Assembly (NCBI GenBank): GCA_020060545.1
Contig: JAGUZX010000135.1
Coordinates: 4,734 to 68,733 of the forward strand
Reading direction: 5' to 3'
Length of the DNA: 64,000 nucleotides
Source of the DNA: Desulfovibrio sp.
Lineage (GTDB): Bacteria > Bacillota > Dethiobacteria > DTU022
Shown here: positions 3,367-42,908 of the stretch, piece by piece
Position numbering within the stretch: the stretch's first letter is position 1
Layout: each line of letters opens with the position of its first letter
Notes under the pieces: model-generated
The model's database searches: none
Seen by the model: the letters and a program-made list of their open reading frames with translations, nothing else
What the model was told of the DNA's origin: nothing
Translations under genes and position numbers: made by a program

Positions 3367-4683
3367 TCAGATCACTTTTCCCAGGAGCTCATTTAAGGTC
3401 GGCTCCCCGATCTCCTGCAGTTCGTAGCGGACCCGCACGGCGGGTTTATTCATTTTGATAATGCGGCGCAGATCGATCGGCGTGGCGATCACCACCAGCT
3501 CGGCGTCCGAACTGTTGATCGTGCTTTCCAGGTCCCTGACCTGCTTCTCCCCGTAACCCATGGCGGGCAGGAGCGTCCCGATATGGGGGTACTTTTCGTA
3601 TGTGGTTTTGAGCGTCCCCACGGCAAACCGGCGCGGATCGACCAGCGCGGTGGCGCCGTACTTCTTGGCGGCGATCACTCCGGCCCCGTAGATCATCTCG
3701 CCGTGCGTCAGGGTGGGGCCGTCTTCAATCACCAGTACTTTTTTACCCCTGATCGAATTGCCGCCCTCGATAAAAATCGGCGAAGCGGCCTCGATCACCA
3801 CCGCCCCGGGGTTGACGCGCCTGATATTTTCCTGCACGATGCCGATCCCCTTAATATCTGCCGTTTCCACCTTGTTGATAATGACCCCGTCGGCCAGGCG
3901 CAGGTTCGTCTCGCCTGGATGGTAGGAAATCTCGTGGCCGGGCCGGTGCGGGTCGACCAGGGTCAGGTAAACGTCGGCCTTGTAAAAGGAGATGTCGTTG
4001 TTGCCGCCGTCCCAGACGATCACGTCCGCCTCCTTTTCCGCCTCCGCCAGGATCCGGCCGTAATCCACCCCGGCGTAAACAATCACCCCGCGGTCGATAT
4101 GCGGTTCATACTCTTCTCTTTCCTCGATTGTGCATTTGTGCCGGTCCAGGTCTTCGTAGTCGGCAAAGCGCTGGCAGACCTGCTTGGTCAGGTCGCCGTA
4201 GGGCATCGGGTGGCGGACCGCCACCACCTTTTTGCCTTTCTCTTTCAAAATCTCGCACACACGGCGGGTAGTCTGGCTCTTGCCCACCCCGGTCCGCACC
4301 GCGGTAACGGCCACCACCGGCTTTGCGGATCGCAGCATGGTGGTCCCCGGCCCCATTAACCGGAAGTCCGCCCCCGCGGCCAGCACCGTGGACGCCTTGG
4401 ACATCACATAATGGTGCGGCACGTCGCTGTAGGCGAAAACCACCTGGTCAACTTTAGCTTTGCGGATCAGGCTTGCCAGTTCTTCTTCGGCGTAAATGGG
4501 GATCCCGTCAGGATAAAGTTTCCCGGCAAGCTGGGCCGGGTAGACCCTCCCCTCGATATCCGGGATCTGCGTAGCGGTAAAGGCTACCACGCGGTACTGC
4601 GCATTATCCCTGAAGTAAACGTTAAAATTATGGAAATCCCTCCCTGCGGCGCCCATGATCATCACTTTTTTGGCTTCCATCAT
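3367..4683 (-). CDS. P-loop protein of the cyclic 2,3-diphosphoglycerate synthetase-like family (function in bacteria unknown)
   Basis: 438 aa. Walker [10 protein letters not shown] mid-protein. Overall architecture resembles archaeal cPGS. Lies 23 bp downstream of argF on the same strand. Confidence 0.45.
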
Positions 4684-14143: not shown

Positions 14144-14900
14144 TTAAGCTTGGCTTTTTACCGTTCCGTCGACCCCGATTATTACCTCCTTAACCCCGCT
14201 CTTCCGGCCCGCCTTTTCCAGGGCCGTCCGGATTAACTGGTTTAAACCGAAACAGCACGGCACATCCATGTGGGCGACAGTAATAGCGCCGATGGAGTTG
14301 CTTTTGAAGATCGCAACCAGCTTTTCCAGGTAAGCGGGGCTGTCGTCAAGTTTAGGGCAGCCGATGAGCAGCGATTTCCCTTTCAACAAGCGGTCGTGAA
14401 ATGCGGCATAGGCGAAAGGAACACAGTCGGCGGAGATTAAAAGGTCTTGGCCCTGTAGAAAACGGGCTTGCGGCGATACCAGGTGCAGCTGGATCGGCCA
14501 GTGAGTCAGCTCCGCTTCCGGTTCTTCTTCGACAGCAGCTTTGCCGCCGTTAAGTGCCGGCCTGCTGTGGCGGAGGTCCCTGGCCATGCTTCCGGCGCAA
14601 GCCGGGCCGCAAACTGCTTCCGCTTCAGCCTCAACACCGGGGCCGGTGTTTAAAGAATGCAGGTGCTCCTCCACCGCCGCTTCATCAAACGGCTCCGCCG
14701 CCCGCTCGATAATTTCAATCGCCCCCTCCGGGCATTCACCCAGGCAGTTCCCCAGTCCGTCGCAAAAACGATCGTCAACCAGGCGCGCTTTTCCGTCGAT
14801 GATCTGCAGCGCACCTTCGGCGCAGGAAGGAATACACAAACCGCACCCGTTGCATTTCGCTTCGTCGATTTTGACAATTTTACGGGTCTCCGCAGCCATT
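14144..14900 (-). CDS. 4Fe-4S dicluster ferredoxin-domain protein with Cys-rich C-terminal domain of unknown function
   Basis: Two CxxCxxCxxxCP motifs at N-terminus. Additional Cys (CVPF, GCPKLDD, VPCC) in the C-terminal domain. ATG at 14900 has an AAGGAGG RBS. Confidence 0.65.
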
Positions 14901-14964
14901 TTTAAATCCTCCTTTTTAATGCAAAAGTGAATTGAGCAGTTTCTGTTTTCATCTTGGCCCCGCA

Positions 14965-15469
14965 CTAATTTTCATTGATGATCTGCCGTGCTTTTTCCAC
15001 CGCATCAAGGGGAAAGTCCAGCTCCTGCGACAGCATGTGGAGAAAAGAGTCGGCCTCGCTTGCCTGTTCCGGAGCAAAGGCTCCCCGGACAGCCTCGGCG
15101 ATCAGGGCAGGCAGCGGGTCAACCTTACGGGTGACGCTTTCTGCTTCAACCCGATCCATCTTCGCCCTGATCTCCTTGACCCGGAGCGGTTCTGCCTGCA
15201 GTATCTGCGCCAGCCTCCCGTCCAGAACCCGCCGCAGCGTCTCTCCGGTTCCCAACCCTGCGCCGCCGAGGCATTTATCGGCGGAAGCACACCACTGGGC
15301 GCAGCCCAGGTTAAACTGGGGATTGACGACACTCTTCCGGCAGTTCGGGCAGCGCACCCGCACGTCCGTTTTCCAGAATTCAATTAGTGAACCGCAGTAT
15401 GGGCACTCCTGTTCGTGAATGTCTTCCGCTTTCCAGTAGCGGGTATCCTGCCCGGGGCATTTTGCAGTG
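14965..15469 (-). CDS. Zinc-ribbon protein (CPYCG...CPNC) of unknown function; start codon uncertain
   Basis: Open frame runs from stop at 15490-15492 (minus strand) without an in-frame ATG/GTG/TTG before the CxxC pairs. A G8 tract/RBS-like AAAGGGGGGGG sits just upstream. The track's GTG at 15363 would truncate the zinc ribbon. Confidence 0.4.
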
Positions 15470-15648: not shown

Positions 15649-16110
15649 CTACGACTCGTATAACCAGCCATCCTGGTCCAGCCGGTAAGCGCATATTTCC
15701 GGTGCGCTAAAAAACAGGTCGATCTCGCGGCGGGCGCTGGCTGTCGAGTCAGAGCCGTGCACAAGGTTATTGCCGGTAAAGATAGCCAGGTCGCCCCTGA
15801 TGGTTCCCGGTACCGCCTGCCTGGGATCGGTGGCGCCAATCAATGTTCGCGCTACGGCTACGGCGTCATCTCCCTCCCAGACCATCGCCACAACAGGCCC
15901 CGAAGTGATAAATGAAAGCAGGCCGTTGTAAAAAGGCTTGCCCCGGTGTTCGGCGTAATGACGCGCAGCCAATTCCGGCGATATTTGCAGCATCTTCAGC
16001 GCTGCGAGCTGCAGCCCTTTACGCTCGAGCCGGCCGATTACCTCCCCCACCAACTTGCGCTGGACTCCGTCAGGCTTAACCATGACAAAAGTTTGTTCTC
16101 TTTTAGACAT
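15649..16110 (-). CDS. ndk: Nucleoside diphosphate kinase
   Basis: [16 protein letters not shown] start and [19 protein letters not shown] motif. Confidence 0.9.
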
Positions 16111-16132
16111 TGACCGGCCTCCCTGGCCCGAC

Positions 16133-17101
16133 TTAATAAATTGTAAACAGGTGATCGTCGTCAATCACCCTGGTTTCGGTGTCACGCCGGTCCCGGTTAT
16201 CCCGCGGGACCGCAAACATGCCCCGGTGAGTCTCCGCATCGTAAAAAGAGAGCGAAAGTTTGCGCTCCCGGAGGCGCCGGTCGATCACTTCCGGTTCAAT
16301 CAGGCCCAAATCGCCATCCCGGGAAACGATGGCATAGCTCCAATCGGTATTGAAAGAAGGAACGAAAGCGTGGTACGAATAAACCCGCGGCATTACTTGC
16401 TTAATTGTGTTGAAAATGACCAGATGTGCGTCCAGGTAAGCTTTGGAGAAATCGCCGGCTTGCAGCGCCAGGATGCCGCCCTCAAAGAGCCGCGCTTTGA
16501 CCAGTTCATAAAACTGCCTGGTAAAGAGCCGGCGCGACGGTCCTTCCTCCACCGGTTCGGACAGGTCGCTGATGATTACATCGAAGCAAAGCGCGTTTTC
16601 TTCAAGGTAACGGCGCGCATCCATGTGGATAAGCTCCAGGCGGGGATCGTTAAAGCTGCCCTGGTGCCACCGCTCCAGGTATTGTTTGCACAGGGTGACG
16701 ACTTCGGCATCGATATCCACCATGACCACCCGCTCCACACAAGCGTGGCGCAGCACCTCCCGCAGCGTGGCCCCTTCCCCGCCTCCGATAATCATAACCC
16801 GGCGGGGGTTCGGGTGCAGCAGCATCGCCGGTTGAACCAGCGCTTCATGGTAAATGTACTCGTCATACTCGGCGGACTGGATCTTTCCGTCTAGCACCAG
16901 GCACCGCCCGAAAAAGTGGGTATCGACTATTTCAGCCTGTTGAAACCCGGTCCGCACGCTGCAAATATAATCCTTCACCGCGAACATGTGCGCCGTGGCC
17001 GGAGATGTATATTCGATATACCATTTATGTTCAGGAGAAGTCAAGGCAGGATCTCCTCCTTTAATAGTTAACCGCCGGTTTATGTTCCAGGGGGACATCA
17101 A
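16133..17101 (-). CDS. speE: Spermidine synthase
   Basis: [16 protein letters not shown] and DIDAEV...HMDARRYL motifs of aminopropyltransferase. Exact start uncertain. Confidence 0.85.
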
Positions 17102-17444
17102 AGATGCCGCGCTTTATTTCACGGGCGGTCATATTTTCTGCGGCAAATCTCTGTTTCAAGTAGTTACATGAAACCCATGGGTCAACGGTCTGACCACAGG
17201 TAAAAATGTCTACCGCAGCGTAACCAAATTCCGGCCAGGTGTGAATAGCCAGGTGTGATTCGGAAATCACTACCACGCCGCTGACACCCTGGGGGCTGAA
17301 CTGGTGAAACACTGTCTCCCTGACTTCAGCTCCCGCTTCCAAAGCCGCTGCCACCATCTCCTGCTTGATCCGATCCGGATTGTTTAACTTCTCCGGTGGG
17401 CAGCCGTAGAACTCGGCCAAAATATGACGGCCTAAAGCGCTCAT
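17061..17444 (-). CDS. speH: S-adenosylmethionine decarboxylase proenzyme (class 1A)
   Basis: [15 protein letters not shown]... with [13 protein letters not shown] self-cleavage motif. Confidence 0.85.
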
Positions 17445-17683
17445 CTCTAATACCTCCTTGTATCCAGTTTTTTTCAAGAGAAAAGCATCAAATTACATTG
17501 TAACAAAGTTCTTTCAAATGTCAATGAAATACACTCAAAATCAGGTAAAAAAACCCGCGTTGCGGCACAAGCAGTCTTTTCCGGGCAAAATGGTGATATA
17601 TTCCTTGCCTAACCCTCTAGCTTTGGCTTAAACTAAAACCAGCGGTTTATAACGTATCATATACCAGTATAAGGAAGCAACTG

Positions 17684-19798
17684 ATGGGCGCACTGGATTT
17701 TTTATTCCATCCCAAGCAAATCGCCGTCATCGGGGCCTCCGGCTCCCCACGTAAAATTGGACGGGTCATCCTGGACAACATTGTTAAAAGCGGCTACCGG
17801 GGACGGATTTACCCGGTCAACCCGCAAGAAAAGGAGATCGCCGGTTTGAAATGTTATCCCGCCGCACATCAAATCGGAACGCCGGTGGAGCTGGCCGTAG
17901 TTGCCGTGCCCGCTGATCGCTCCCTCCAGGTGGCCCGGGAATGCGGCGCCGCCGGCGTGAAAGGGCTGATTGTTATCAGCGCCGGGTTCAAGGAAGTCGG
18001 ATCGGAGGGGCTGAAACAAGAGCGCGAACTGCTCGCCGTCTGCCGCCAGTATGACATGCGCATGGTCGGCCCGAACTGTGTCGGATTAATGGACACCCAT
18101 ACACCGTTAAATGCTTCTTTTGCCAGGGGGTTCCCCGGGCAGGGTAATATTACTTTCATTTCGCAAAGCGGCGCGATGCTGGTCTCCATCCTGGACTGGA
18201 GCTTCGCCATGGGGTTGGGCTTTTCCCGTTTCATCAGCCTGGGGAATAAGGCGGACCTTAACGAAATCGACTTTATTGAAAGCAGTGCCGCCGACCCTCA
18301 GACCAAGGTCATCCTCTGCTATCTCGAGGACGTTACGGACGGTGAACGTTTTATCCGCGTTTGCACTGCAGCCGGCAAGCGAAAACCGATTATTATCCTC
18401 AAATCAGGCACCAGCACCGCCGGGGCCCAGGCGGCCAGTTCCCACACCGGCGCCCTGGCCGGCAGCAACCGCGCCTACGAAACCGCTTTCCGGCAGAGCG
18501 GTGTCCTCCAGGTAAGCCAAATGAGCGAACTTTTTGATCTGGCCGGGGCTTTTGCCGTCCAACCGCCCCCCGCCGGGGACAGGGTGGCAATCGTGACTAA
18601 CGCCGGGGGGCCGGCGATCGTCACTACCGATGCTGTGGAAAGATCCGGCTTGAAAATGGCGCGTTTCGAGAGGGAAACCATTGACGCTTTGCATTTGAAT
18701 CTTCCTCCGGAGGCGAATATTTACAACCCCGTGGATATCCTCGGCGATGCGGGCGTGGAACGCTACCGTTTCGCCCTGGAAAAGGTGCTCCAGGATCAAA
18801 ATGTCGACAGTGCCCTGGTGCTGCTGTGCCCGGCGGCGGTAACCGAACCGGAGAAAACAGCCCGAGTAATTTTGGAGCTGAAGGACGCCTTCCCCCGCAA
18901 GCCTGTTTTCGCCGTTTATATGGGTGGGAAAAGCCTGGCCAGAGGAAAAGAGATGCTGACCCTGGGGGGGGTCCCCACTTTTACCTTCCCGGAAACCGCG
19001 GTCAAAACACTGGAAGGGATAGTGCGCTTCAGCCGTGCTGCGCTGGAAACAGCGCCGCTCCCCCCCCTGCGGCTGGAAGGCGCCGACCAGAATGCGGTCA
19101 AAGCCGCTTTTTATGACGTTTTAAAAGACCGGCGCGTGGTCCTGCTCGGCCACGAAAGTTCCCGGGTCATGGCGGCGTACGGGATCCCGGCCAGCCCGGT
19201 GCGCCTGGCTTCTTCCGCGGAGGAGGCCGCGGCGATCAGTAGGGAGATCGGCTTTCCGGTGGTGCTCAAAATATCCTCGCCCCGCATCGCGCATAAGACA
19301 GACGTCGGCGGAGTTGAAATCGGGCTGCACAACGACCGGTCGGTCGAGCGGGCTTATAAAAAGATCATGGAGCGCGTGCAGCGTTTCCTGCCGGATGCCC
19401 CCATTTATGGGGTCGAGGTTCAAAAAATGGTAGACGAAGGCGTTGAAGTGATTATCGGTATGTCCCGCGATCTCCAGTTTGGCCCGCTTGTTGTATTTGG
19501 GCTGGGCGGTATTTACGTCAACCTGATCGAGGATGTTTCTTTCCGCCTCGCTTCCGCCTTGACCACCCGCAAGGCGGTGGAAGAGCTGATTGCCGAAACC
19601 AAGGCTTATACTCTCCTGAAAGGGTACCGGGGAAAGAAAACCGCCGATATGGAGGCGCTGATCGACGCCATTTTCCGGACGGCGCGCCTGGTGCTCGATT
19701 TCGAAGAAATCTCGGAGATGGACATCAACCCCTTGCGTGTGCATACCCGGGGAGCAACCGCTCTCGATGTAAAGATGACGATCGAACGCGTGCATTAA
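17684..19798 (+). CDS. ADP-forming acyl/acetyl-CoA synthetase, fused alpha-beta subunits (NDP-forming acyl-CoA synthetase superfamily)
   Basis: 704 aa. CoA-binding N-terminus (IAVIGASGSP), ligase-CoA domain, C-terminal ATP-grasp domain. Confidence 0.85.
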   Translation: MGALDFLFHPKQIAVIGASGSPRKIGRVILDNIVKSGYRGRIYPVNPQEKEIAGLKCYPAAHQIGTPVELAVVAVPADRSLQVARECGAAGVKGLIVISAGFKEVGSEGLKQERELLAVCRQYDMRMVGPNCVGLMDTHTPLNASFARGFPGQGNITFISQSGAMLVSILDWSFAMGLGFSRFISLGNKADLNEIDFIESSAADPQTKVILCYLEDVTDGERFIRVCTAAGKRKPIIILKSGTSTAGAQAASSHTGALAGSNRAYETAFRQSGVLQVSQMSELFDLAGAFAVQPPPAGDRVAIVTNAGGPAIVTTDAVERSGLKMARFERETIDALHLNLPPEANIYNPVDILGDAGVERYRFALEKVLQDQNVDSALVLLCPAAVTEPEKTARVILELKDAFPRKPVFAVYMGGKSLARGKEMLTLGGVPTFTFPETAVKTLEGIVRFSRAALETAPLPPLRLEGADQNAVKAAFYDVLKDRRVVLLGHESSRVMAAYGIPASPVRLASSAEEAAAISREIGFPVVLKISSPRIAHKTDVGGVEIGLHNDRSVERAYKKIMERVQRFLPDAPIYGVEVQKMVDEGVEVIIGMSRDLQFGPLVVFGLGGIYVNLIEDVSFRLASALTTRKAVEELIAETKAYTLLKGYRGKKTADMEALIDAIFRTARLVLDFEEISEMDINPLRVHTRGATALDVKMTIERVH

Positions 19799-19819
19799 AA
19801 GGCTAAATGAGGTGAAGCG

Positions 19820-20881
19820 ATGAAAACCATCTATTTCTCGGGCAAAGCAGGCGACGGGAAAACCGCCACCGCCCTCGGGATCGCGCTGAAACTGCAGGAG
19901 CAGGATCTCAAAGTTTCATATTTTAAGCCCCTCGGCTTCCAGAAAGGGGCGGTCAAAAAAGAAGACGACGATGTCCTGCTGATGCGCGAGGTATTGAAGC
20001 TGCCTTTCCCGGGCGAGGTGCTCTCCCCGGTAACGGTTAACGCTCATTACCTGGCGGGACGTTTCCTAAAAGAAGATCCATCAATCTGGTATAAGATTGA
20101 TGAATCGTTCAACCGCTGCAGCCGGGGTTATGATGCGATAATCATCGACGGCAGTGTGGCGCCTTTTGTCGGTTACAACCAGGGCCTTGACGACTTCAGC
20201 CTGGCGAAGCATTTTGGTGCTGCTGTCATCTATATCCTTAAAACGGAAGATGACTTCGAGCTGGATCGCGGCCTTCTCTACATCGAGATATGGTCGTGCC
20301 GGGAGGTCCCTCTGCTCGGCTGCATCTTCAACAATATTTCACGGGCCCAGTGGGATAAAACCAGGGGGGTTTACAGGCCGATCCTGGAGCGAAAACAGAT
20401 CCGGGTTCTGGGGGTAATCCCCCGCCAGGCCGAGATTGCCGCGCCCACGGTGGCGGAATTCTACAATGCTTTGGGCGGGGAGATCCTGGCGGCGCCCGAC
20501 CGGATGAACCGGTTGGTTGAAGAAGTGGTCATCGGTTCCATGACCATTGAAAGTGCGCTGGGGTACCTCCGCCGCGCGCCGAACAAGGCGCTGATCACCG
20601 GGGGGGATCGCAGCGATATGGCTTTGACGGCCCTTGAAACCAGCACCTCGGTCATTATTTTTACCGGCGGGCTCTACCCCGATGTGCGAGTCCTCGCCCG
20701 GGCGGAAGAAAAAGGCGTCCCCGTAATTTTGGTTCACGAAGACACCTTTTCTACCGTGGAAAACCTGCATAAGGTTTACCGCAGCATCCATCCCCAAAAC
20801 AACGAAGCGATCCGGATCGTCATGGATAATATCGAGAAACACGTGGACTTGACACCGGTTTTAGATTACATCCGGCAGTAA
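19820..20881 (+). CDS. Stand-alone phosphotransacetylase-N-terminal-like protein (BioD/MinD-like P-loop plus DRTGG domain)
   Basis: FSGKAGDGKTATALGIA P-loop. C-terminal LITGGDRSDMALTALETS (DRTGG-type). RBS-coupled 21 bp after the ACD stop. Confidence 0.6.
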   Translation: MKTIYFSGKAGDGKTATALGIALKLQEQDLKVSYFKPLGFQKGAVKKEDDDVLLMREVLKLPFPGEVLSPVTVNAHYLAGRFLKEDPSIWYKIDESFNRCSRGYDAIIIDGSVAPFVGYNQGLDDFSLAKHFGAAVIYILKTEDDFELDRGLLYIEIWSCREVPLLGCIFNNISRAQWDKTRGVYRPILERKQIRVLGVIPRQAEIAAPTVAEFYNALGGEILAAPDRMNRLVEEVVIGSMTIESALGYLRRAPNKALITGGDRSDMALTALETSTSVIIFTGGLYPDVRVLARAEEKGVPVILVHEDTFSTVENLHKVYRSIHPQNNEAIRIVMDNIEKHVDLTPVLDYIRQ

Positions 20882-20958
20882 GCAAGTTCAAAAAGTTCAT
20901 TCGGTGCCTGGCACCAAAATGAACTATCTGACAATTTACGGCTGCCGGTAAACGGGGC

Positions 20959-22041
20959 CTAACTACCGTTCTTTTGGCGGTACATTTTCTGATCGGCCAC
21001 CCGTAAAAGCTCTTCCATCGTTTGCCCTTCTACCGGGTATTCCGCCACTCCGCCGCTGATACTGAGCCTTACCTGTTGGCTTTGGAAGAAATAGGGATGG
21101 TTTTGGATCGCATGCCGCATGCGCTGCAAGGCCTGTTCGGCCTGTTCCCGCCCTGCACCGCATAAAAGGAGCAGGAATTCATCTCCACCGTAACGGGCCA
21201 AGGTCTCACCGCCCCGCACCGCAGCCTTCAAAATCCCGGCGACATGTTTTAAAACCTCGTCCCCGGTTGTATGACCGAACCGGTCATTGACCTTTTTGAA
21301 CAGGTCCAGGTCCAAAAAAGCGAGCGCAAAGCGGCCTCCGGTTCGAGGACAGCGCTTAATCTCTTCTCTAATCCTTTCCCGGACGTAACCGCTATGGTAT
21401 AGCCCGGTGAGGTGATCGGTCACCGAAGAAGTGTAGAGTTCTTTCCGCAGTCTGAATTCTTCTTTTACCAATACACTGGTGGTCCAAATGAGGAAACAAA
21501 AGCTGCCCAGACCCGCTAGCAGGTAAAGCTCAATCGGGTAGTTGAAATTATCTGGCGCAAATAAAAAATTAATGGCTGTTAAAACTGCCGTTAGGCCAAG
21601 GCTTAGAAAGCCGAATTTTAATCCAAAGCGCACCGTGCAAACCAGGATGGGAACACTAAAGGCAATCTGGAAAAAACTCTTGACCCCACCGGTTAGGTAA
21701 ACCAGGCTGCCGATTAATAAAAAATCAAAGCAATCCAAAATGAGGTAAACGGGGGTGTTCCTCAAGGAAAGTGTCTTCTTCCGGTAACGAAAAATGCTGT
21801 AGGCAACAGCAAGAAGGATTAATCCCGCGAGCGGTTTTTTCACATGGGTTAAGTAGGGATAGGCCAAACTAAGTATCAAAAAACAAAACAAAAGGAACCA
21901 GATCCGCAGCATTTTATAAAAACGGCTCAGTTCCAGGTTCCGCCTGGCTTCATAATTATGATCGCTATACCGGCCTGAAGTTGTAAGAGTGGCGGTACCG
22001 TCTTCATAATCCAAAGTAGTTTCCCAGCGCTGCAAATTCAA
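20959..22041 (-). CDS. Membrane-anchored GGDEF diguanylate cyclase
   Basis: Five to six predicted TM helices followed by GGDEF domain (RYGGDEFLLLL). Confidence 0.8.
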   Translation of the reverse strand: MNLQRWETTLDYEDGTATLTTSGRYSDHNYEARRNLELSRFYKMLRIWFLLFCFLILSLAYPYLTHVKKPLAGLILLAVAYSIFRYRKKTLSLRNTPVYLILDCFDFLLIGSLVYLTGGVKSFFQIAFSVPILVCTVRFGLKFGFLSLGLTAVLTAINFLFAPDNFNYPIELYLLAGLGSFCFLIWTTSVLVKEEFRLRKELYTSSVTDHLTGLYHSGYVRERIREEIKRCPRTGGRFALAFLDLDLFKKVNDRFGHTTGDEVLKHVAGILKAAVRGGETLARYGGDEFLLLLCGAGREQAEQALQRMRHAIQNHPYFFQSQQVRLSISGGVAEYPVEGQTMEELLRVADQKMYRQKNGS

Positions 22042-24164: not shown

Positions 24165-26147
24165 CTACGACCGCAGAATCCGGTTAATCTCTCTCGCCAG
24201 GTCCTCTACCTTCGACGGTTTGGCAATAAAGCCCTTGAACCCGTAACGGCTGTATTCGCGGGCTACCGGGTCATTTGTATAACCGGTGGAAACTATCGCT
24301 TTAACCCCGGGATCAACCTGCATTAATTTTTGCATCGTTTCTTTGCCTCCCATGCCTCCGGCGACGGTTAAATCCATGATCACGACATCATACGGGCGGC
24401 CAGAATCGAGGCCCCTCCGGTACAGCTCAAGCGCTTCCTGCCCGTCGCCTGCCACTTCGGTTTGATAGCCTAGCTCGGCCAATAAATCGCTGGTTATCTC
24501 CGCCAAGATCTTGTTGTCATCCATCAGCAAAATTCTACCCTGTCCCGCGACAATGCTCTTCTTTTCTACCTCACGAGATATAATTTCACCGGTGAATGCC
24601 GGTAAATAAAGAAAGAAGGTTGTCCCTTGCCCCGGTTTGGAATCAACCCTGATATGCCCGTTATGCTTAGTGATCACAGAGTAAGTAATTGCCAGCCCGA
24701 GACCGCTGCCTTCGGGCTTAGTCGTAAAAAACGGATCGAATATTTTTGCCAGGTGTTCTTCCAAAATACCGCAGCCCTGATCTGCAATCGTGATTTTTAC
24801 ATAATTTTCAGCGGGCAAATCGACACCCCGTAAATACGATTCTCCCTCGCCGGGGACATTTTCCAGTTTAACCCGGATTGTGCCGCCATTCGGCATGGCC
24901 TGCATGGCGTTGATCATGATATTATTAATCGCCTGGCTGATCTGGCCTTCGTCTACTTCAACCGGTAGCAGCTGACCGGGGATGGACAATTCAAAACCGA
25001 TGTTGGAACCGCTTAAAACCAGAGAGGCGGTTTCTTTAATCAAATCTTGCACATAAACAGCTTTCTTTAACGGGACGCTTTCTTTGGCAAAAGTAAGCAG
25101 TTGGGTGCTTAGCCTTTTAGCCTGTTGAACTACCTTTTCGACCTCACCCAGCTTTTCAAGCAGCATGTTCCGATCCCTCAAATAAAGGCGGGCCAAAAAA
25201 ATATTCGCCAGGATAACCGCCAGGCAGTTATTGAAGTCGTGTGCAATCCCACTGGCCAGAATACCGACAGATTCAAGCTTCGATGCTTTCAGGTACTCTT
25301 CATCTCTTTTTTTCCGGTCGGTAACATCCCGGGTCACGAAAACAATCCCTACAGGAGAACCGTTTTCATCCGGCAGAATGCAACCTGATACCTCCGCCCA
25401 GATATAGCTGCCTTTGGCATGCCTGATCCGGGTCTCGATACTTTTGGGTGATGCGGTTAAGATCAGTGTGTGGAAAGTGGCCTTGAATTTTTCCACTTCG
25501 TCCGGATGGATCAAATCAAAAGAAAGCTTTCCCACTATTTCTGCTTCGTCGTAACCCAAAATGTATTTTATGGAAGGGCTGACATAGATATAATAGCCGT
25601 CCAAATCTGTTTGGGAGACTACATCAAGCATACCTTCGGCAATACGCCGCAGTCGGGCTTCACTCTCATAGGCCTCTTTCTCTTGTTGCTTCCGCTCACT
25701 CGCGCGGCCGTAAAACGGTTTGCCGGGGACAAGATCTGCTCCGGTCCTGGCCGGGCTTTCAAGGCAAAAAAAGAAATCCGCCTCTGACAGCGGTTTATAA
25801 ATGTAATCGTCGGCTCCCCGGCCCAAGAACTCATGCAATCTGGCGCGTCTCTCCCATTCCAAAACAACAATTTTTTTTATGGCAGGGGAGTTGCTGCGGC
25901 TGCACTGCAGCAAAACGCTTACGTCCAAACCGGGTAAGCAAGGATCGAGCAGTATATGATCAATTTGATTTTCTTGTACCAGGCGCAACGCTTCTTCCGT
26001 GGAAGCGCAGGTGAAGCAAATGACCTTGTTTTTTCGCTTTGCCAGCAGGATTTTAACCTGATCATGCAGCACCTGATCGCCGGCGATAAGGAGCTTCAAT
26101 CCAGACACCCCTTTAAAAGTATCAAGTATAAGGCAGATTTTAAGCAA
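24165..26147 (-). CDS. Hybrid sensor histidine kinase / response regulator (REC-PAS-HisKA-HATPase-REC)
   Basis: N-terminal receiver-like domain, PAS, H-box ([10 protein letters not shown]), HATPase, C-terminal receiver ([11 protein letters not shown]). Confidence 0.8.
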
Positions 26148-29448: not shown

Positions 29449-31116
29449 TTGGCGGAACTTGTAGAAGAGAAGTTATGGCATAAAAGTTACAGGCTTGGCT
29501 CCCGCCAGTTGGCGCGAAGTTTAACTCCTTATCCCGAACTGCCCTTATACACAATTTTAGATCACACGGCCTCCCGAAACCCTTCATCAAGTGCCGTAGA
29601 GTACTGCGAAAAAAAACTGAGCTATGCTGAACTGAAGGTGCAATGTGACAGTCTAGCCGCCGCCCTGGCCCGGCTCAAAGTAAAACCGGGGGATAAAGTA
29701 GTTACGATCCTGCCGACCTGCCCTCAATATATAATCAGCACGTTTGCAACCTTAATAACGGGTGCGGCCCATGTTCCATGCAGCATGCTCCAAAAAATAG
29801 AGGAGCTGGAGTACGAAATTCATGAGTCCGGGGCCAATACGGTAATTTGCTTACTTGAGCACTTGGACAGCATCAAATCAATTAGGCCCGGGACAAAGCT
29901 TAAGAATATTATCGTTACTTCAATTGATGATTATACCTTAGCACAGCCTGATCAATTAAAACGAATCAAGGGCGCCTACCAGTTCAGAGATTTAATCGCA
30001 AAATACAGGCCCCGCCCTCCAAAAGTCGTAATTAACCCCAGGGAAGATTTAGCCTACCTTGCTTTTACCGGGGGCGCAACAGGCCGGCCCAAAGGCGTAA
30101 TGCTGACGCACTATAACCGCCTGTGCAACGTACTGCAAGGGCTACCCTGGCTGTTGTCCACCTATGAGAAGCATCTCCGTGGAACCGGCTCGGTGATCAT
30201 CTCGGTCCCCCTTTTTCATTCATATGGTGATTGGATGATGCTGTCGGCGATTTACTGGGGCTTAAGAATAATCCTGGTCAGAGACCCCCGGGACATCGAT
30301 ACTTTGCTCGAGCTAATGATCAAAAACCGCCCTTTCCTGGTCAGTATTGTGCCCACTCAACTGATGAAGCTGCGTGAAAAGGATATCCCCGGCATGCCGG
30401 TGCAAATCATCTCCGGAGCGGCCTATTTACCGGACCATCTTCGTAAATCATTTTCTGAAAGGACTAAGATACCCGTATCGGAGGGCTACGGTTTAACAGA
30501 AGCCGGCCCTGTTACTCATATTAACCTGGCCGGCGCGTTCTCGCGCCAGGTAAAACACAGCATCGGCGTCCCGGTTCCGGATACGGCGGTGAAGTTAATT
30601 GATGAAGAGTCGGGTCAGGAATGCGCGATCGGCGAGGCAGGGCATATGTACATTAAAGGGCCTCAGGTAATGAAAGGTTACTGGCCAAACCCCGGGAACG
30701 GGTTGGTTGACGGTTGGCTCCCTACCGGCGATATCGCCCTGATGGATGAGGACGGTTACTTCTACCTGGTAGACCGCATTAAGGACATGGTAAATGTCTC
30801 CGGCTACAAAGTATATCCAGGCACCGTTGACGATATTTTATACCAGCACCCGGCAGTCTTCGCTGCGGCGTCCATCGGCGTGCCCGATCCGGAAAGGGGC
30901 GGGAGCGAAAGGATTAAAGCTTTTATCCAATTAAAGGAAGACTATAAAGGCAAAATAAGCGCCGCCGAGATCATTGAATTTTGCAAAGCTAAATGCCCGC
31001 CTTATGCCGTGCCGAGGTTTGTTGAATTTCGAGAAGACTTGCCTCTAACAGCAACCCAAAAGCTTTTTAAACGGAAATTAAGAGAAGAAGAGGCCGGCAA
31101 ACCGCAAACACAATAA
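29449..31116 (+). CDS. AMP-dependent synthetase/ligase (long-chain acyl-CoA/acyl-ACP synthetase-like)
   Basis: 555 aa. AMP-binding motifs (TGGATGRPKGV, GYGLTE, C-terminal PKTxxxK-type). Confidence 0.8.
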   Translation: MAELVEEKLWHKSYRLGSRQLARSLTPYPELPLYTILDHTASRNPSSSAVEYCEKKLSYAELKVQCDSLAAALARLKVKPGDKVVTILPTCPQYIISTFATLITGAAHVPCSMLQKIEELEYEIHESGANTVICLLEHLDSIKSIRPGTKLKNIIVTSIDDYTLAQPDQLKRIKGAYQFRDLIAKYRPRPPKVVINPREDLAYLAFTGGATGRPKGVMLTHYNRLCNVLQGLPWLLSTYEKHLRGTGSVIISVPLFHSYGDWMMLSAIYWGLRIILVRDPRDIDTLLELMIKNRPFLVSIVPTQLMKLREKDIPGMPVQIISGAAYLPDHLRKSFSERTKIPVSEGYGLTEAGPVTHINLAGAFSRQVKHSIGVPVPDTAVKLIDEESGQECAIGEAGHMYIKGPQVMKGYWPNPGNGLVDGWLPTGDIALMDEDGYFYLVDRIKDMVNVSGYKVYPGTVDDILYQHPAVFAAASIGVPDPERGGSERIKAFIQLKEDYKGKISAAEIIEFCKAKCPPYAVPRFVEFREDLPLTATQKLFKRKLREEEAGKPQTQ

Positions 31117-41270: not shown

Positions 41271-42908
41271 TTAACCACCGTGAATCCGAACAGGCCATCT
41301 GTGATTAAAAGACATCTTGATCAAATATTTAAACAGATCCAAAAACAGGTCCACCAATTCGGGATCGAATTGCGTGCTCGCAAATTGCTTCAATTCTTCA
41401 ATCGCGCTTTCGTGGGGTCTGGCCTTGCTGTACGGCCTGCCGCTGGTCATCGCGTCATAGGCGTCCACGATGGCCAGAATGCGGGACTCCACGGGTATTT
41501 CTTTTCCTTTAATGCCCAGCGGGTAACCGCTGCCGTCCCACCACTCGTGGTGTTTCAAGATAAAATCGGCCACGCCTGACAGATCCGTAGAGGAAAGGGC
41601 GATGCGGTAGCCCTTCTCCGGGTGCTGGCAGATCATATGCCATTCTTCCGCGGTGAGCGGTTCCGTTTTAAACAGAATCCGATCCGGAATGCTCACCTTC
41701 CCCAGGTCGTGAACCCTGGCCAAAAGGGCCAGGTTGGTAAGCCGGTTCGTAGAAAGGTTGATTTTTTCGCCGATTTTCTGGCAAAGTTGCTCCAACCTCC
41801 GCCCATGGCCTTCATTGATGAAGTCCTTTTTGGCCAGGGTTTCCAGGAGAGCCTGGACAGTCCTGCTGCGGACCGTCGCGCTGTGATAGAGCTTCTCGCG
41901 GTACATCATGTCATCGGCCTTTTGATACAGCTCTTTCAGGGCGGTTTCTTTGGTTTCAGCAGTGGCCACACCCAGGGATAAGCCCAAAAGCAGGTTAGCC
42001 TGTTTCAGGTTGTACCCGGCAATATTCTCCTTGATGCGGGCGGCGATCGCGGCGGCGGTTTGCGCATCGGTACGGGGCAAAATAATGCAAAATTCGTCGC
42101 CGCCCACCCGGGCCAATATATCGGAACCCCGCAGGGAGCCTTTTAAAACACCGGCGACTGCGATCAGCAGCTGATCCCCTTTGTCATGGCCCATGGTGTC
42201 GTTGATTAATTTCAAGTTGTCCATGTCCGCGGAAATTAAACTGATCGGGTACTCCCGGCCGGTGCTGAAGCGCTTAATCTCTTCCTCAAAAAAAGCACGG
42301 TTATACAGCCCGGTAAGCTGATCATATAGACTCAAATGCCGCAGCTGCTCTTCAAAAATAATTCGCTCGGTGATGTCACGGGCAACCCCCCGGAAGCCGG
42401 TGATGCCGCCTTCACCCTTGATGGGAGAGATCGAAAGCTCCCCGTAAACGGTGGCGCCGTCTTTTTGGATCAACTCCATGGTGAACCGTTGAGGGCGCCC
42501 GGTTAAATAAACCTGGTGAAAAGCACGATAGGCGGACTCAGGGTTCCTGGCGAGCTGCTTGTAGTTAACGCCTAAAAGTTCCTGACGGGAACAGCCGAGC
42601 AACCGGCCGGCGGCATCGTTGCAAAAAGTGATATTTCCCGCCAGGTCGGCCTCGTAGTACCCTTCTTCCAGAGAAAGCAAGATATGCCGGTACTCGTCGC
42701 CAGGTTCCTGCGGCGCCCGTTCCGTAAGTTTCTGCTCGTCGTATATTTCAGGATCCCTCCCTTCCGCTTCGCTCAATGACACAGGAAAAAATACCATGGA
42801 TAAAATGGAAATATACCGCAAAAGTTGCCAAATTTCTCTTGTATTTCTCTTGTATAATTTTGCTTCTTCCCCTGATCTTCCTGCTTGATTAATCAATTTC
42901 TTCTCCAA
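41271..42908 (-). CDS. PAS-GGDEF-HD-GYP c-di-GMP turnover protein; N-terminus uncertain (alternative ATG at 42797)
   Basis: PAS, GGDEF (RVGGDEFCIIL), HD-GYP (HHEWWDGSGYP). TTG at 42908 versus ATG at 42797. An 11-bp tandem repeat lies in the disputed 5' segment. Confidence 0.75.
   Translation of the reverse strand: MEKKLINQAGRSGEEAKLYKRNTREIWQLLRYISILSMVFFPVSLSEAEGRDPEIYDEQKLTERAPQEPGDEYRHILLSLEEGYYEADLAGNITFCNDAAGRLLGCSRQELLGVNYKQLARNPESAYRAFHQVYLTGRPQRFTMELIQKDGATVYGELSISPIKGEGGITGFRGVARDITERIIFEEQLRHLSLYDQLTGLYNRAFFEEEIKRFSTGREYPISLISADMDNLKLINDTMGHDKGDQLLIAVAGVLKGSLRGSDILARVGGDEFCIILPRTDAQTAAAIAARIKENIAGYNLKQANLLLGLSLGVATAETKETALKELYQKADDMMYREKLYHSATVRSRTVQALLETLAKKDFINEGHGRRLEQLCQKIGEKINLSTNRLTNLALLARVHDLGKVSIPDRILFKTEPLTAEEWHMICQHPEKGYRIALSSTDLSGVADFILKHHEWWDGSGYPLGIKGKEIPVESRILAIVDAYDAMTSGRPYSKARPHESAIEELKQFASTQFDPELVDLFLDLFKYLIKMSFNHRWPVRIHGG

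Follow-up and report, generated by a model that had tools for sequence, protein, structure and literature searches.

A conserved gene pair of ADP-forming acyl-CoA synthetase and a stand-alone P-loop/DRTGG protein, a candidate accessory subunit of the synthetase

Class-II phosphotransacetylases (Ptas) carry in cis a module composed of a P-loop domain and a DRTGG domain, and truncated or point-mutated forms of the enzymes from Escherichia coli and Salmonella, as described in the portion of the Pta literature drawn on here, have linked the module to oligomerisation, to maximal activity and to the way the enzyme responds to pyruvate and NADH (PMC12724200). According to the same portion, the effects of pyruvate, phosphoenolpyruvate, NADH and ATP on Pta represent the kinetics of the whole enzyme and not mapped sites, and the function of DRTGG is called unknown (PMC12724200). 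The present study deals with a stand-alone protein that has these two domains and is encoded directly downstream of acd, the gene of an ADP-forming acyl-CoA synthetase (ACD), in 64,000 nucleotides of DNA from Desulfovibrio sp. (GTDB lineage Bacillota, Dethiobacteria, DTU022; assembly GCA_020060545.1, contig JAGUZX010000135.1, positions 4,734 to 68,733 of the forward strand). This whole stretch is called the window, and the positions given for its features are counted within it. We consider it probable, though by no means certain, that the two genes form an operon, acd-ptaN, and that the product of the second one, the PtaN-like protein, is a dedicated accessory subunit of ACD that probably senses nucleotides or metabolites.

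A stand-alone AAA + DRTGG protein of Desulfovibrio vulgaris, DVU3031, is encoded beside the pta-ack and lactate dehydrogenase genes (PMC4481167, PMC10102598); it is needed for growth on L-lactate and has been described as “experimentally uncharacterized” (PMC10102598). Like the PtaN-like protein, DVU3031 is without a Pta catalytic domain and belongs to an operon related to acetyl-CoA and acetate, a likeness drawn from its description and not from its sequence. The same gene pair as that of the window is found in haloarchaea. A 2024 study of Haloferax mediterranei reported that HFX_0997, a “putative phosphate acetyltransferase” of 364 amino acids (aa), adjoins the ADP-forming acetyl-CoA synthetase HFX_0998, that this ACD/“putative PTA” organisation is widespread in haloarchaea and occurs also in H. 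volcanii and Har. hispanica, and that both ACD and “putative PTA” are up-regulated on glucose; the function of “putative PTA” was stated to be undetermined (PMC11784441). HFX_0997 was treated there as a candidate PTA and not as a partner of ACD. The plasmid-borne haloarchaeal copies have the same order, ACD of ∼700 aa followed by a P-loop + DRTGG protein of ∼350 to 364 aa that is 30 to 32% identical to the protein of the window, while their genes overlap by 4 nt in place of the 21-nt spacer found here. The adjacency of acd and ptaN is already known for haloarchaea (PMC11784441) and is not new as an observation; what is new, as far as the literature found goes, is the breadth of the pairing, the conclusion that the second protein cannot be a Pta, and the hypothesis of a partnership. 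In the part of a review of syntrophic propionate oxidisers that is cited here, ADP-forming ligases are described as not characterised in any such organism, and that part makes no mention of a PtaN-like neighbour (PMC8892533).

The acd-ptaN pair and its products

The pair comprises the following features.

17684..19798, plus strand: acd, fused alpha-beta ADP-forming acyl-CoA synthetase, 704 aa (Pfam, TIGR02717)
18437..18463, plus strand: His-alpha phosphohistidine loop SSHTGALAG, ACD residues 252-260, aligned to msHTGALmG of 8WZU
19289..19315, plus strand: His-beta motif AHKTDVGGV in the ATP-grasp domain, ACD residues 536-544, aligned to iHKSDaGGV of 8WZU
19809..19815, plus strand: Shine-Dalgarno sequence GAGGTGA of the ptaN-like gene, 4 nt before its ATG and within the 21-nt spacer
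19820..20881, plus strand: ptaN-like gene, stand-alone BioD-like P-loop + DRTGG protein, 353 aa
19820..20446, plus strand: P-loop domain (BioD/CobQ-type), residues 1-209 (Pfam AAA_26, residues 11-209, E 1e-18)
19841..19864, plus strand: Walker A motif GKAGDGKT, residues 8-15
19919..19975, plus strand: YFKPL (Lys36) and EDDDV (Asp49/Asp51) motifs, positionally like Lys37 and Asp54 of BioD
20462..20773, plus strand: DRTGG domain, residues 215-318 (Pfam DRTGG, 99.9 bits, E 9e-29)
20594..20680, plus strand: Gly-rich motifs ITGGDRSD and FTGGLYP of the DRTGG domain (TGGDR = residues 260-264)
20893..20925, no strand assigned: hairpin between the convergent ptaN-like and GGDEF genes, with a terminator-like site at 20918..20900 of the minus strand

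The two reading frames, the 21-nt gap and the GAGGTGA sequence had been given by the first-pass annotation, a reading of the DNA letters alone, and a check against the open reading frames (ORFs) and the sequence found them exact. In ACD, residues 10-700 are covered by CoA_binding_2, Succ_CoA_lig, Ligase_CoA_2 and ATP-grasp_5 of Pfam, with all five subdomains present. The protein scores 579.5 bits against TIGR02717, “acetate--CoA ligase alpha subunit” (cutoff 567), and its nearest solved structure is 8WZU, 4-hydroxybutyrate--CoA ligase [ADP-forming], at 543 bits. The role of the His-alpha loop is established for ACD and succinyl-CoA synthetase, and that of His-beta comes from the ACD of P. furiosus. 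Judged from its sequence, ACD is expected to be a catalytically complete enzyme that interconverts acyl-CoA + ADP + Pi and acid + ATP + CoA. As for the acid, the equivalogs for 4-hydroxybutyrate-, acetate- and 3-hydroxypropionate-CoA ligases give the best matches, all far under cutoff. The alpha part of ACD (residues 3-450) aligns to positions 217-663 of NF045494, the model of the Archaeoglobus-type acetate--CoA ligase, and therefore the domain order of that ligase is reversed (beta-alpha). No second ACD, Pta or acetate kinase was found in the 64-kb window; the 206-nt leader of acd contains no Rfam family at gathering score, and in the whole window only two tRNAs reach that score. Farther downstream, at a distance of 8.5 kb, an AMP-forming acyl-CoA synthetase with AMP-binding and AMP-binding_C domains is encoded (29449-31116, plus strand), so that in this region the organism possesses acid-CoA ligases of both kinds, ADP-forming and AMP-forming.

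The PtaN-like protein is named “phosphotransacetylase family protein” by PGAP, and Pfam gives it no domain besides AAA_26 and DRTGG, neither PTA_PTB nor CBS. Its AlphaFold2 model, built with an alignment of 121 diverse family members, shows a compact two-domain fold (pLDDT 95, pTM 0.87). In Foldseek searches of the PDB, the C-terminal half superimposes on 2IOJ (AF_1212 of Archaeoglobus fulgidus) with a template-modelling (TM) score of 0.86, a root-mean-square deviation of 1.4 Å and 52% identity (sequence E 2e-26), while the N-terminal half (residues 1-210) is most similar to dethiobiotin synthetases (TM 0.73-0.74) and then to MinD, HypB, ParA and CobB; no solved structure that spans both halves together was found by these searches. 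The deposited chain of AF_1212 has 139 residues and represents the DRTGG half only. Its locus tag is consecutive with that of AF_1211, which we take to be a characterised ACD and presumably its neighbour.

The same 121-sequence alignment was used to count residue conservation. Of the 121 members, 119 share the Walker A residue Gly13, 116 share Lys14 and 113 have Thr or Ser at position 15; the lysine of the “KP” motif, Lys36, is present in 118, Asp49 in 117, Asp51 in 115, and the Walker-B-like acidic residue at position 110 in 93 (77%). The DRTGG domain contains two invariant residues, Gly239 and Arg264 (both 121/121), besides Asp263 and Gly283 (both 119/121). The stand-alone protein keeps what looks like a working nucleotide site, its DRTGG domain appears to hold a strictly conserved putative pocket, and such conservation suggests that the functional sites of the protein are under selection.

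These motifs raise the question of whether the PtaN-like protein might be an enzyme of the same pathway that works independently of ACD, catalysing ATP-dependent phosphorylation of a carboxylate in the manner of BioD, CobB/CobQ and CTP synthase, and perhaps making or using an acyl-phosphate. Walker A Lys/Thr, the KP lysine and Asp-x-Asp are kept in over 90% of the members (the acidic Walker-B-like residue in 77%), dethiobiotin synthetases are the best structural matches of the first 210 residues (TM 0.73), and in the corresponding module of E. coli Pta, certainly a non-catalytic one, the lysine of Walker A is gone. Residues 1-210 share their fold with the ATP-binding domains of BioD and CobB/CobQ, and Walker A, the KP lysine, the Asp and the acidic motifs come in the same order; the correspondence of Lys36, Asp49 and Asp51 to BioD residues is drawn from this motif order and not from structural superposition. 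The identity to BioD/CobQ is, however, 14 to 18%, and the PtaN-like protein has DRTGG where CobB/CobQ carry a glutaminase domain. The BioD fold itself is recovered at TM 0.73; the NCBIfam matches include no BioD or CobQ family, no substrate-binding signature of either and no equivalog, and the protein has no glutaminase or other second catalytic domain. ACD alone performs the full conversion in vitro (PMC11784441), and no orphan reaction of acetate metabolism calls for such an enzyme. An independent enzyme of this kind therefore seems unlikely.

The junction of the two genes is compact. The stop codon TAA of acd at 19796-19798 is followed by the 21-nt spacer, and the ptaN-like gene starts with ATG at 19820. 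Both genes are in one reading frame, with a start-to-start offset of 2136 nt and two stops (TAA, TGA) between them. In the 80 related genome loci described below, the distance from the acd stop to the start of the partner has a median of 11 nt. Among the relatives as a whole, distant ones and plasmid copies included, the usual arrangement is a 10-nt gap in which the Shine-Dalgarno sequence overlaps the ACD stop, or else a gene overlap of 1 to 8 nt; several archaeal pairs overlap by 4 to 8 nt. Nearly all related loci have a Shine-Dalgarno sequence of GAGGTG type ahead of the second gene, and this sequence often extends into the stop codon of ACD. The architecture of acd-ptaN is co-transcriptional, and the hairpin at 20893..20925 is a probable bidirectional terminator, predicted to end the two-gene operon. 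The first-pass annotation had called the genes translationally coupled: the tight junctions and overlaps of the relatives agree with this, and coupling is probable there, but in the window, where each gene has its own stop and start and 21 nt lie between them, the term goes beyond what the arrangement itself tells.

Conservation of the pair

Twelve homologs were aligned, and a scan of one genome per GTDB species found relatives of the PtaN-like protein in at least 585 genomes, of which the best 80 were examined with their flanks. Linkage was counted from the PtaN-like side, that is, loci with a PtaN homolog were inspected for an adjoining ACD. An ACD homolog, 47 to 75% identical and either full-length or truncated by a contig end, is located directly upstream on the same strand in all 80 genome loci, where the PtaN homologs show 38 to 73% identity. 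Most of the hosts belong to Bacillota (Syntrophomonadaceae, Pelotomaculum, Desulfotomaculum, Desulfofundulus and Dethiobacteria), and the pair is also present in a metagenome-assembled genome (MAG) of Desulfovibrio and in three archaeal MAGs, from Hydrothermarchaeota, Thermoproteota and Bathyarchaeia. When the flanking ORFs of 83 loci were clustered, only acd and the ptaN-like gene were common to them, the next most frequent neighbours, speH, speE and ndk, being present in 16 to 17 of the 83. Pairwise distances between the ACDs and those between the PtaN-like proteins are correlated with r = 0.93, the PtaN-like protein evolving ∼1.3 times faster.

The linkage extends to distant members of the family. 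Among ten representatives with 28 to 35% identity, seven (P0141, P0188, P0211, P0212, P0269, P0181 and P0225) have ACD directly upstream, and so do all four inspected copies from haloarchaeal megaplasmids detected by tblastn in PLSDB. On the plasmids of Halolamina, Halobaculum and Halomicrobium, RefSeq lists a gene for “acetate--CoA ligase” and, overlapping its end by 4 nt, one for “phosphotransacetylase family protein”. The association of acd with the ptaN-like gene is far beyond chance, and co-occurrence in other genomes, whose lack had been named beforehand as an argument against a tie between the two proteins, was found in each of these sets of loci.

The length and architecture of the protein are constant as well. 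A HMMER search of 1.84 billion representatives yielded 1566 relatives (clusters at 50% identity), among which 258 reach E ≤ 1e-30. Except for a few shorter, partial ones, the best 150 of the 1566 are ∼350 aa long. The best 120 of 684 homologs from another set are also ∼350 aa long, and precomputed Pfam domains give them the same AAA_26 + DRTGG architecture. Neither a protein of Pta length nor an ACD-PtaN fusion was found among the best 120 of 684 or the best 150 of 1566 homologs, and these matches therefore offer no Rosetta-stone evidence in the form of a natural fusion.

The conservation data bear directly on the idea that the ptaN-like gene is a decayed remnant of pta or an operon hitch-hiker with no functional tie to ACD. 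Nothing speaks for this idea beyond the general point that adjacency alone does not prove function, while hundreds of diverged lineages of bacteria and archaea keep the ∼350-aa length, the invariant motifs and the place after ACD, and the AlphaFold2 model is compact and confident. A meaningless remnant is thus very improbable, and we regard it as effectively refuted by the conservation data.

In two loci, genes related to acetylation adjoin the pair: an HDAC-type deacetylase in one (L096, 5726-6763, minus strand), and, directly upstream of ACD in Halomicrobium, a GNAT acetyltransferase (L094, 2086-2724, plus strand). Their presence may be due to chance, or it may hint at control by acetylation at the same metabolic node.

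Relation to Pta and possible roles of the PtaN-like protein

The Pta equivalog NF004167 matches residues 4-349 of the PtaN-like protein with E 3e-36 but covers only positions 5-369 of its 708, at 125 bits versus a cutoff of 418. Because the match is limited to the N-terminal half of the profile and PTA_PTB is missing, the catalytic half of Pta is absent from the protein, and its description in the first-pass annotation as a stand-alone, Pta-N-terminal-like P-loop + DRTGG protein without a catalytic domain is borne out. The possibility that it is nevertheless a true phosphotransacetylase, providing a Pta-type route beside ACD, derives from its names, since both PGAP and JGI use “phosphotransacetylase family protein”, and from its listing as a PTA candidate in the Haloferax study (PMC11784441). 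With the PTA_PTB domain absent and the half-match of NF004167 so far under its cutoff, such a function is barely conceivable, and we treat it as excluded by the missing catalytic domain; the same conclusion was drawn for DVU3031 (PMC4481167).

The N-terminal module of class-IIa Pta from E. coli and Salmonella has the same two domains in the same order and can be aligned with the PtaN-like protein from end to end, and both accompany an enzyme that converts acetyl-CoA + Pi via an acetyl-phosphate stage. The differences are that the PtaN-like protein is a separate polypeptide and that its partner is ACD, not a Pta catalytic domain. Residues 1-400 of E. coli Pta (MG1655) are 19% identical to the PtaN-like protein and have VGLTS in place of the GK[TS] of Walker A, with Leu for Lys. 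The first-pass annotation had interpreted the protein as a Pta module repurposed to serve ACD. Its core, a Pta-N-like module that is a conserved and tightly linked companion of ACD (80/80 loci), stands, but the word “repurposed” is unjustified as to origin, given that it is the stand-alone family that has the canonical Walker A (Lys in 116/121), with Leu at this place in E. coli Pta. Descent may just as well have run from the stand-alone protein to Pta, which, to judge from these sequences, may have acquired the module instead of donating it.

DRTGG domains also occur in the regulatory insert of CBS-pyrophosphatases (CBS-DRTGG-CBS; 3L2B/3L31), where the domain lies within a nucleotide-regulated module, as it would in the PtaN-like protein. 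That insert has no P-loop and the PtaN-like protein has no CBS, and the two match only weakly (sequence E 0.004), over ∼80 to 100 residues. Models of CBS-pyrophosphatase and SpxR touch the DRTGG stretch only, with E 1e-10 or worse, and pyrophosphatase models reach 16 to 41 bits versus cutoffs above 330. A clustering with CBS/DRTGG pyrophosphatase regulators, which the first-pass annotation had named as an argument against its own reading, was not seen; the PtaN-like protein matches the Pta N-terminus over its whole length with E 3e-36 and lacks CBS.

Linkage, tight junctions, conservation of the pair and nothing else around it, co-inheritance, the constant length of ∼350 aa, the retained motifs and the whole-length homology with the Pta module lead us to prefer the reading of the PtaN-like protein as an accessory subunit of ACD. 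The partnership of the two proteins appears well supported by these comparative data, while a physical interaction, the identity of a ligand and a regulatory effect are what we infer from them. Both proteins would be made from one transcript in a near-fixed proportion and would most likely work together in a complex. An adenine nucleotide would be bound by the P-loop domain of BioD type, whose Walker A is intact, and the DRTGG domain, with its pocket of invariant Gly, Asp-Arg and Gly-rich segments, might bind a metabolite, mediate oligomerisation, or do both. The module might then pass its state to ACD and set the activity or the direction of this reversible, near-equilibrium enzyme, so that acetyl-CoA would be spent for ATP only when appropriate and no ATP would be wasted on the activation of acetate. 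Such a mechanism would be the equivalent in trans of the control exerted in cis by the same module on Pta.

Several points weigh against an accessory subunit. Adjacency and co-inheritance are equally expected for two independent enzymes of one pathway, and catalytic motifs of BioD type that are still intact suit an enzyme no less than a sensor. A PtaN-like partner is dispensed with by many characterised ACDs. Three of the ten distant representatives are not adjacent to ACD, namely, P0237, P0254 and probably P0164, and neither is the one relative of P0237 that a metagenome scan found. DVU3031 adjoins the pta, ack and lactate dehydrogenase genes and not ACD; because it and these orphans are located elsewhere, the P-loop + DRTGG module is not exclusive to ACD. 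In a rough neighbour-joining tree, the ACD-linked members spread across the whole stand-alone family with the few orphans nested among them and the N-domain of E. coli Pta as a long-branched outgroup, so that linkage with ACD looks ancestral for the stand-alone family and seems to have been lost occasionally. The purified ACD of Haloferax alone is active in both directions (PMC11784441), and the partner is therefore not needed for catalysis there. Two other observations on Haloferax count in favour of an accessory subunit: ACD and “putative PTA” are both up-regulated on glucose, and growth on acetate, which the chromosomal ACD cannot sustain, becomes possible when ACD alone is supplied once more on a plasmid, even under the native promoter; the authors put the latter down to the level of expression (PMC11784441). 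This rescue is compatible with titration of a restraining partner, but the account by expression level is simpler and equally good.

The orphan P-loop + DRTGG genes are located as follows on their own contigs.

L088 (P0237), 428-1480
L091 (the relative of P0237), 426-1505
L098 (P0254), 902-1975
L095 (P0164), 70-1149

Their neighbours include a HIT-like gene and the genes of a ketol-acid reductoisomerase, an anti-sigma-type kinase and a PAS-GGDEF sensor, the last of which comes after the orphan gene in L095. In the protein of L091, TGGDR is replaced by TRGDR and TGG by TNN.

A different function for a partner of ACD would be that of a structural scaffold or assembly factor, which organises ACD dimers into higher oligomers or assists their assembly in an NTP-dependent manner, as do other P-loop proteins of the SIMIBI class, with no sensing of metabolites. 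The N-terminal domain is needed for the native oligomerisation of Pta (PMC12724200), the DRTGG domain of CBS-pyrophosphatases sits in an oligomerising regulatory insert whose structures 3L2B and 3L31 are among the structural matches, and the P-loop half resembles MinD, ParA and HypB, which dimerise on ATP. ACD, however, has no need of a metallocentre or of any known maturation, the recombinant enzyme of haloarchaea works by itself (PMC11784441), and the DRTGG pocket with its invariant Asp-Arg and Gly-rich segments looks like a ligand site and not a mere interface. We leave a minor but real chance to this explanation.

To return to an accessory subunit of ACD, a bolder form of it supposes that the PtaN-like protein is an active BioD-type ATPase or kinase, which would build a two-subunit machine with ACD, gating the direction of the reaction by binding or hydrolysing ATP or else supplying or accepting an acyl-phosphate, and which would be the ancestor of the N-domain of class-II Pta, now degenerate. 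Although this is a long shot, it would, if true, reveal an unrecognised layer of control on substrate-level phosphorylation common to syntrophic Firmicutes, TACK archaea and haloarchaea.

Surrounding genes and implications

Upstream of acd and divergent from it lies a cluster of polyamine and nucleotide genes.

17061..17477, minus strand: speH (AdoMet_dc, TIGR03330)
17493-17524, minus strand: sigma-70 promoter of speH, TTGACA-16-TACAAT, 11/12, with TG extension
15649-17477, minus strand: speH-speE-ndk cluster (S-adenosylmethionine decarboxylase, spermidine synthase, nucleoside-diphosphate kinase)

The first-pass annotation had mentioned speH and a palindrome in this region. The gene is confirmed, though its start is probably not the TTG of 17477 but the ATG near 17444 (MSALGRH...), which follows a GGAGG, while the palindrome is the 11-mer TTACATTGTAA (TTACA-T-TGTAA) at 17493..17503 and not the 12-mer TTACAatTGTAA. 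It overlaps the −10 box of the minus-strand speH promoter, and of 71 other loci only 2 have it ahead of ACD; it was considered as an operator of acd and rejected on both of these grounds. Since the synteny of speH-speE-ndk is confined to 16 to 17 close relatives, the cluster is lineage-specific and not a part of the acd-ptaN unit, and speH and the palindrome are incidental to the pair.

Beyond this cluster, 14144-15363 (minus strand) encodes a 273-aa protein with an N-terminal 2×[4Fe-4S] ferredoxin domain and then a Cys-rich 132-aa protein without a Pfam match, and homologs of both are located near acd in ∼8 related loci. Genes for signalling proteins are dense in the region: a membrane GGDEF cyclase (20959-22041, minus strand) is convergent with the ptaN-like gene, and further downstream follow a PAS-histidine-kinase-receiver hybrid (24165-26147, minus strand) and a PAS-GGDEF-HD protein (41271-42908, minus strand). 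A 438-aa ORF at 3367-4683 (minus strand), which gives no Pfam match at E ≤ 1e-5, lies between the genes of a beta-eliminating lyase and an aspartate/ornithine carbamoyltransferase.

ACD is the one-enzyme alternative to Pta-Ack for obtaining ATP from acetyl-CoA and holds a central place in how syntrophs, fermentative archaea and haloarchaea balance their energy. The recognition of its neighbour as a protein without the catalytic domain of Pta corrects the annotation “putative PTA”, from which metabolic reconstructions might wrongly derive a Pta step that does not exist. A small, confidently folded partner that accompanies ACD in bacteria and archaea alike would make a clean two-protein system, in which it should be possible to find what the P-loop + DRTGG module binds and how an enzyme that consumes acetyl-CoA is controlled.

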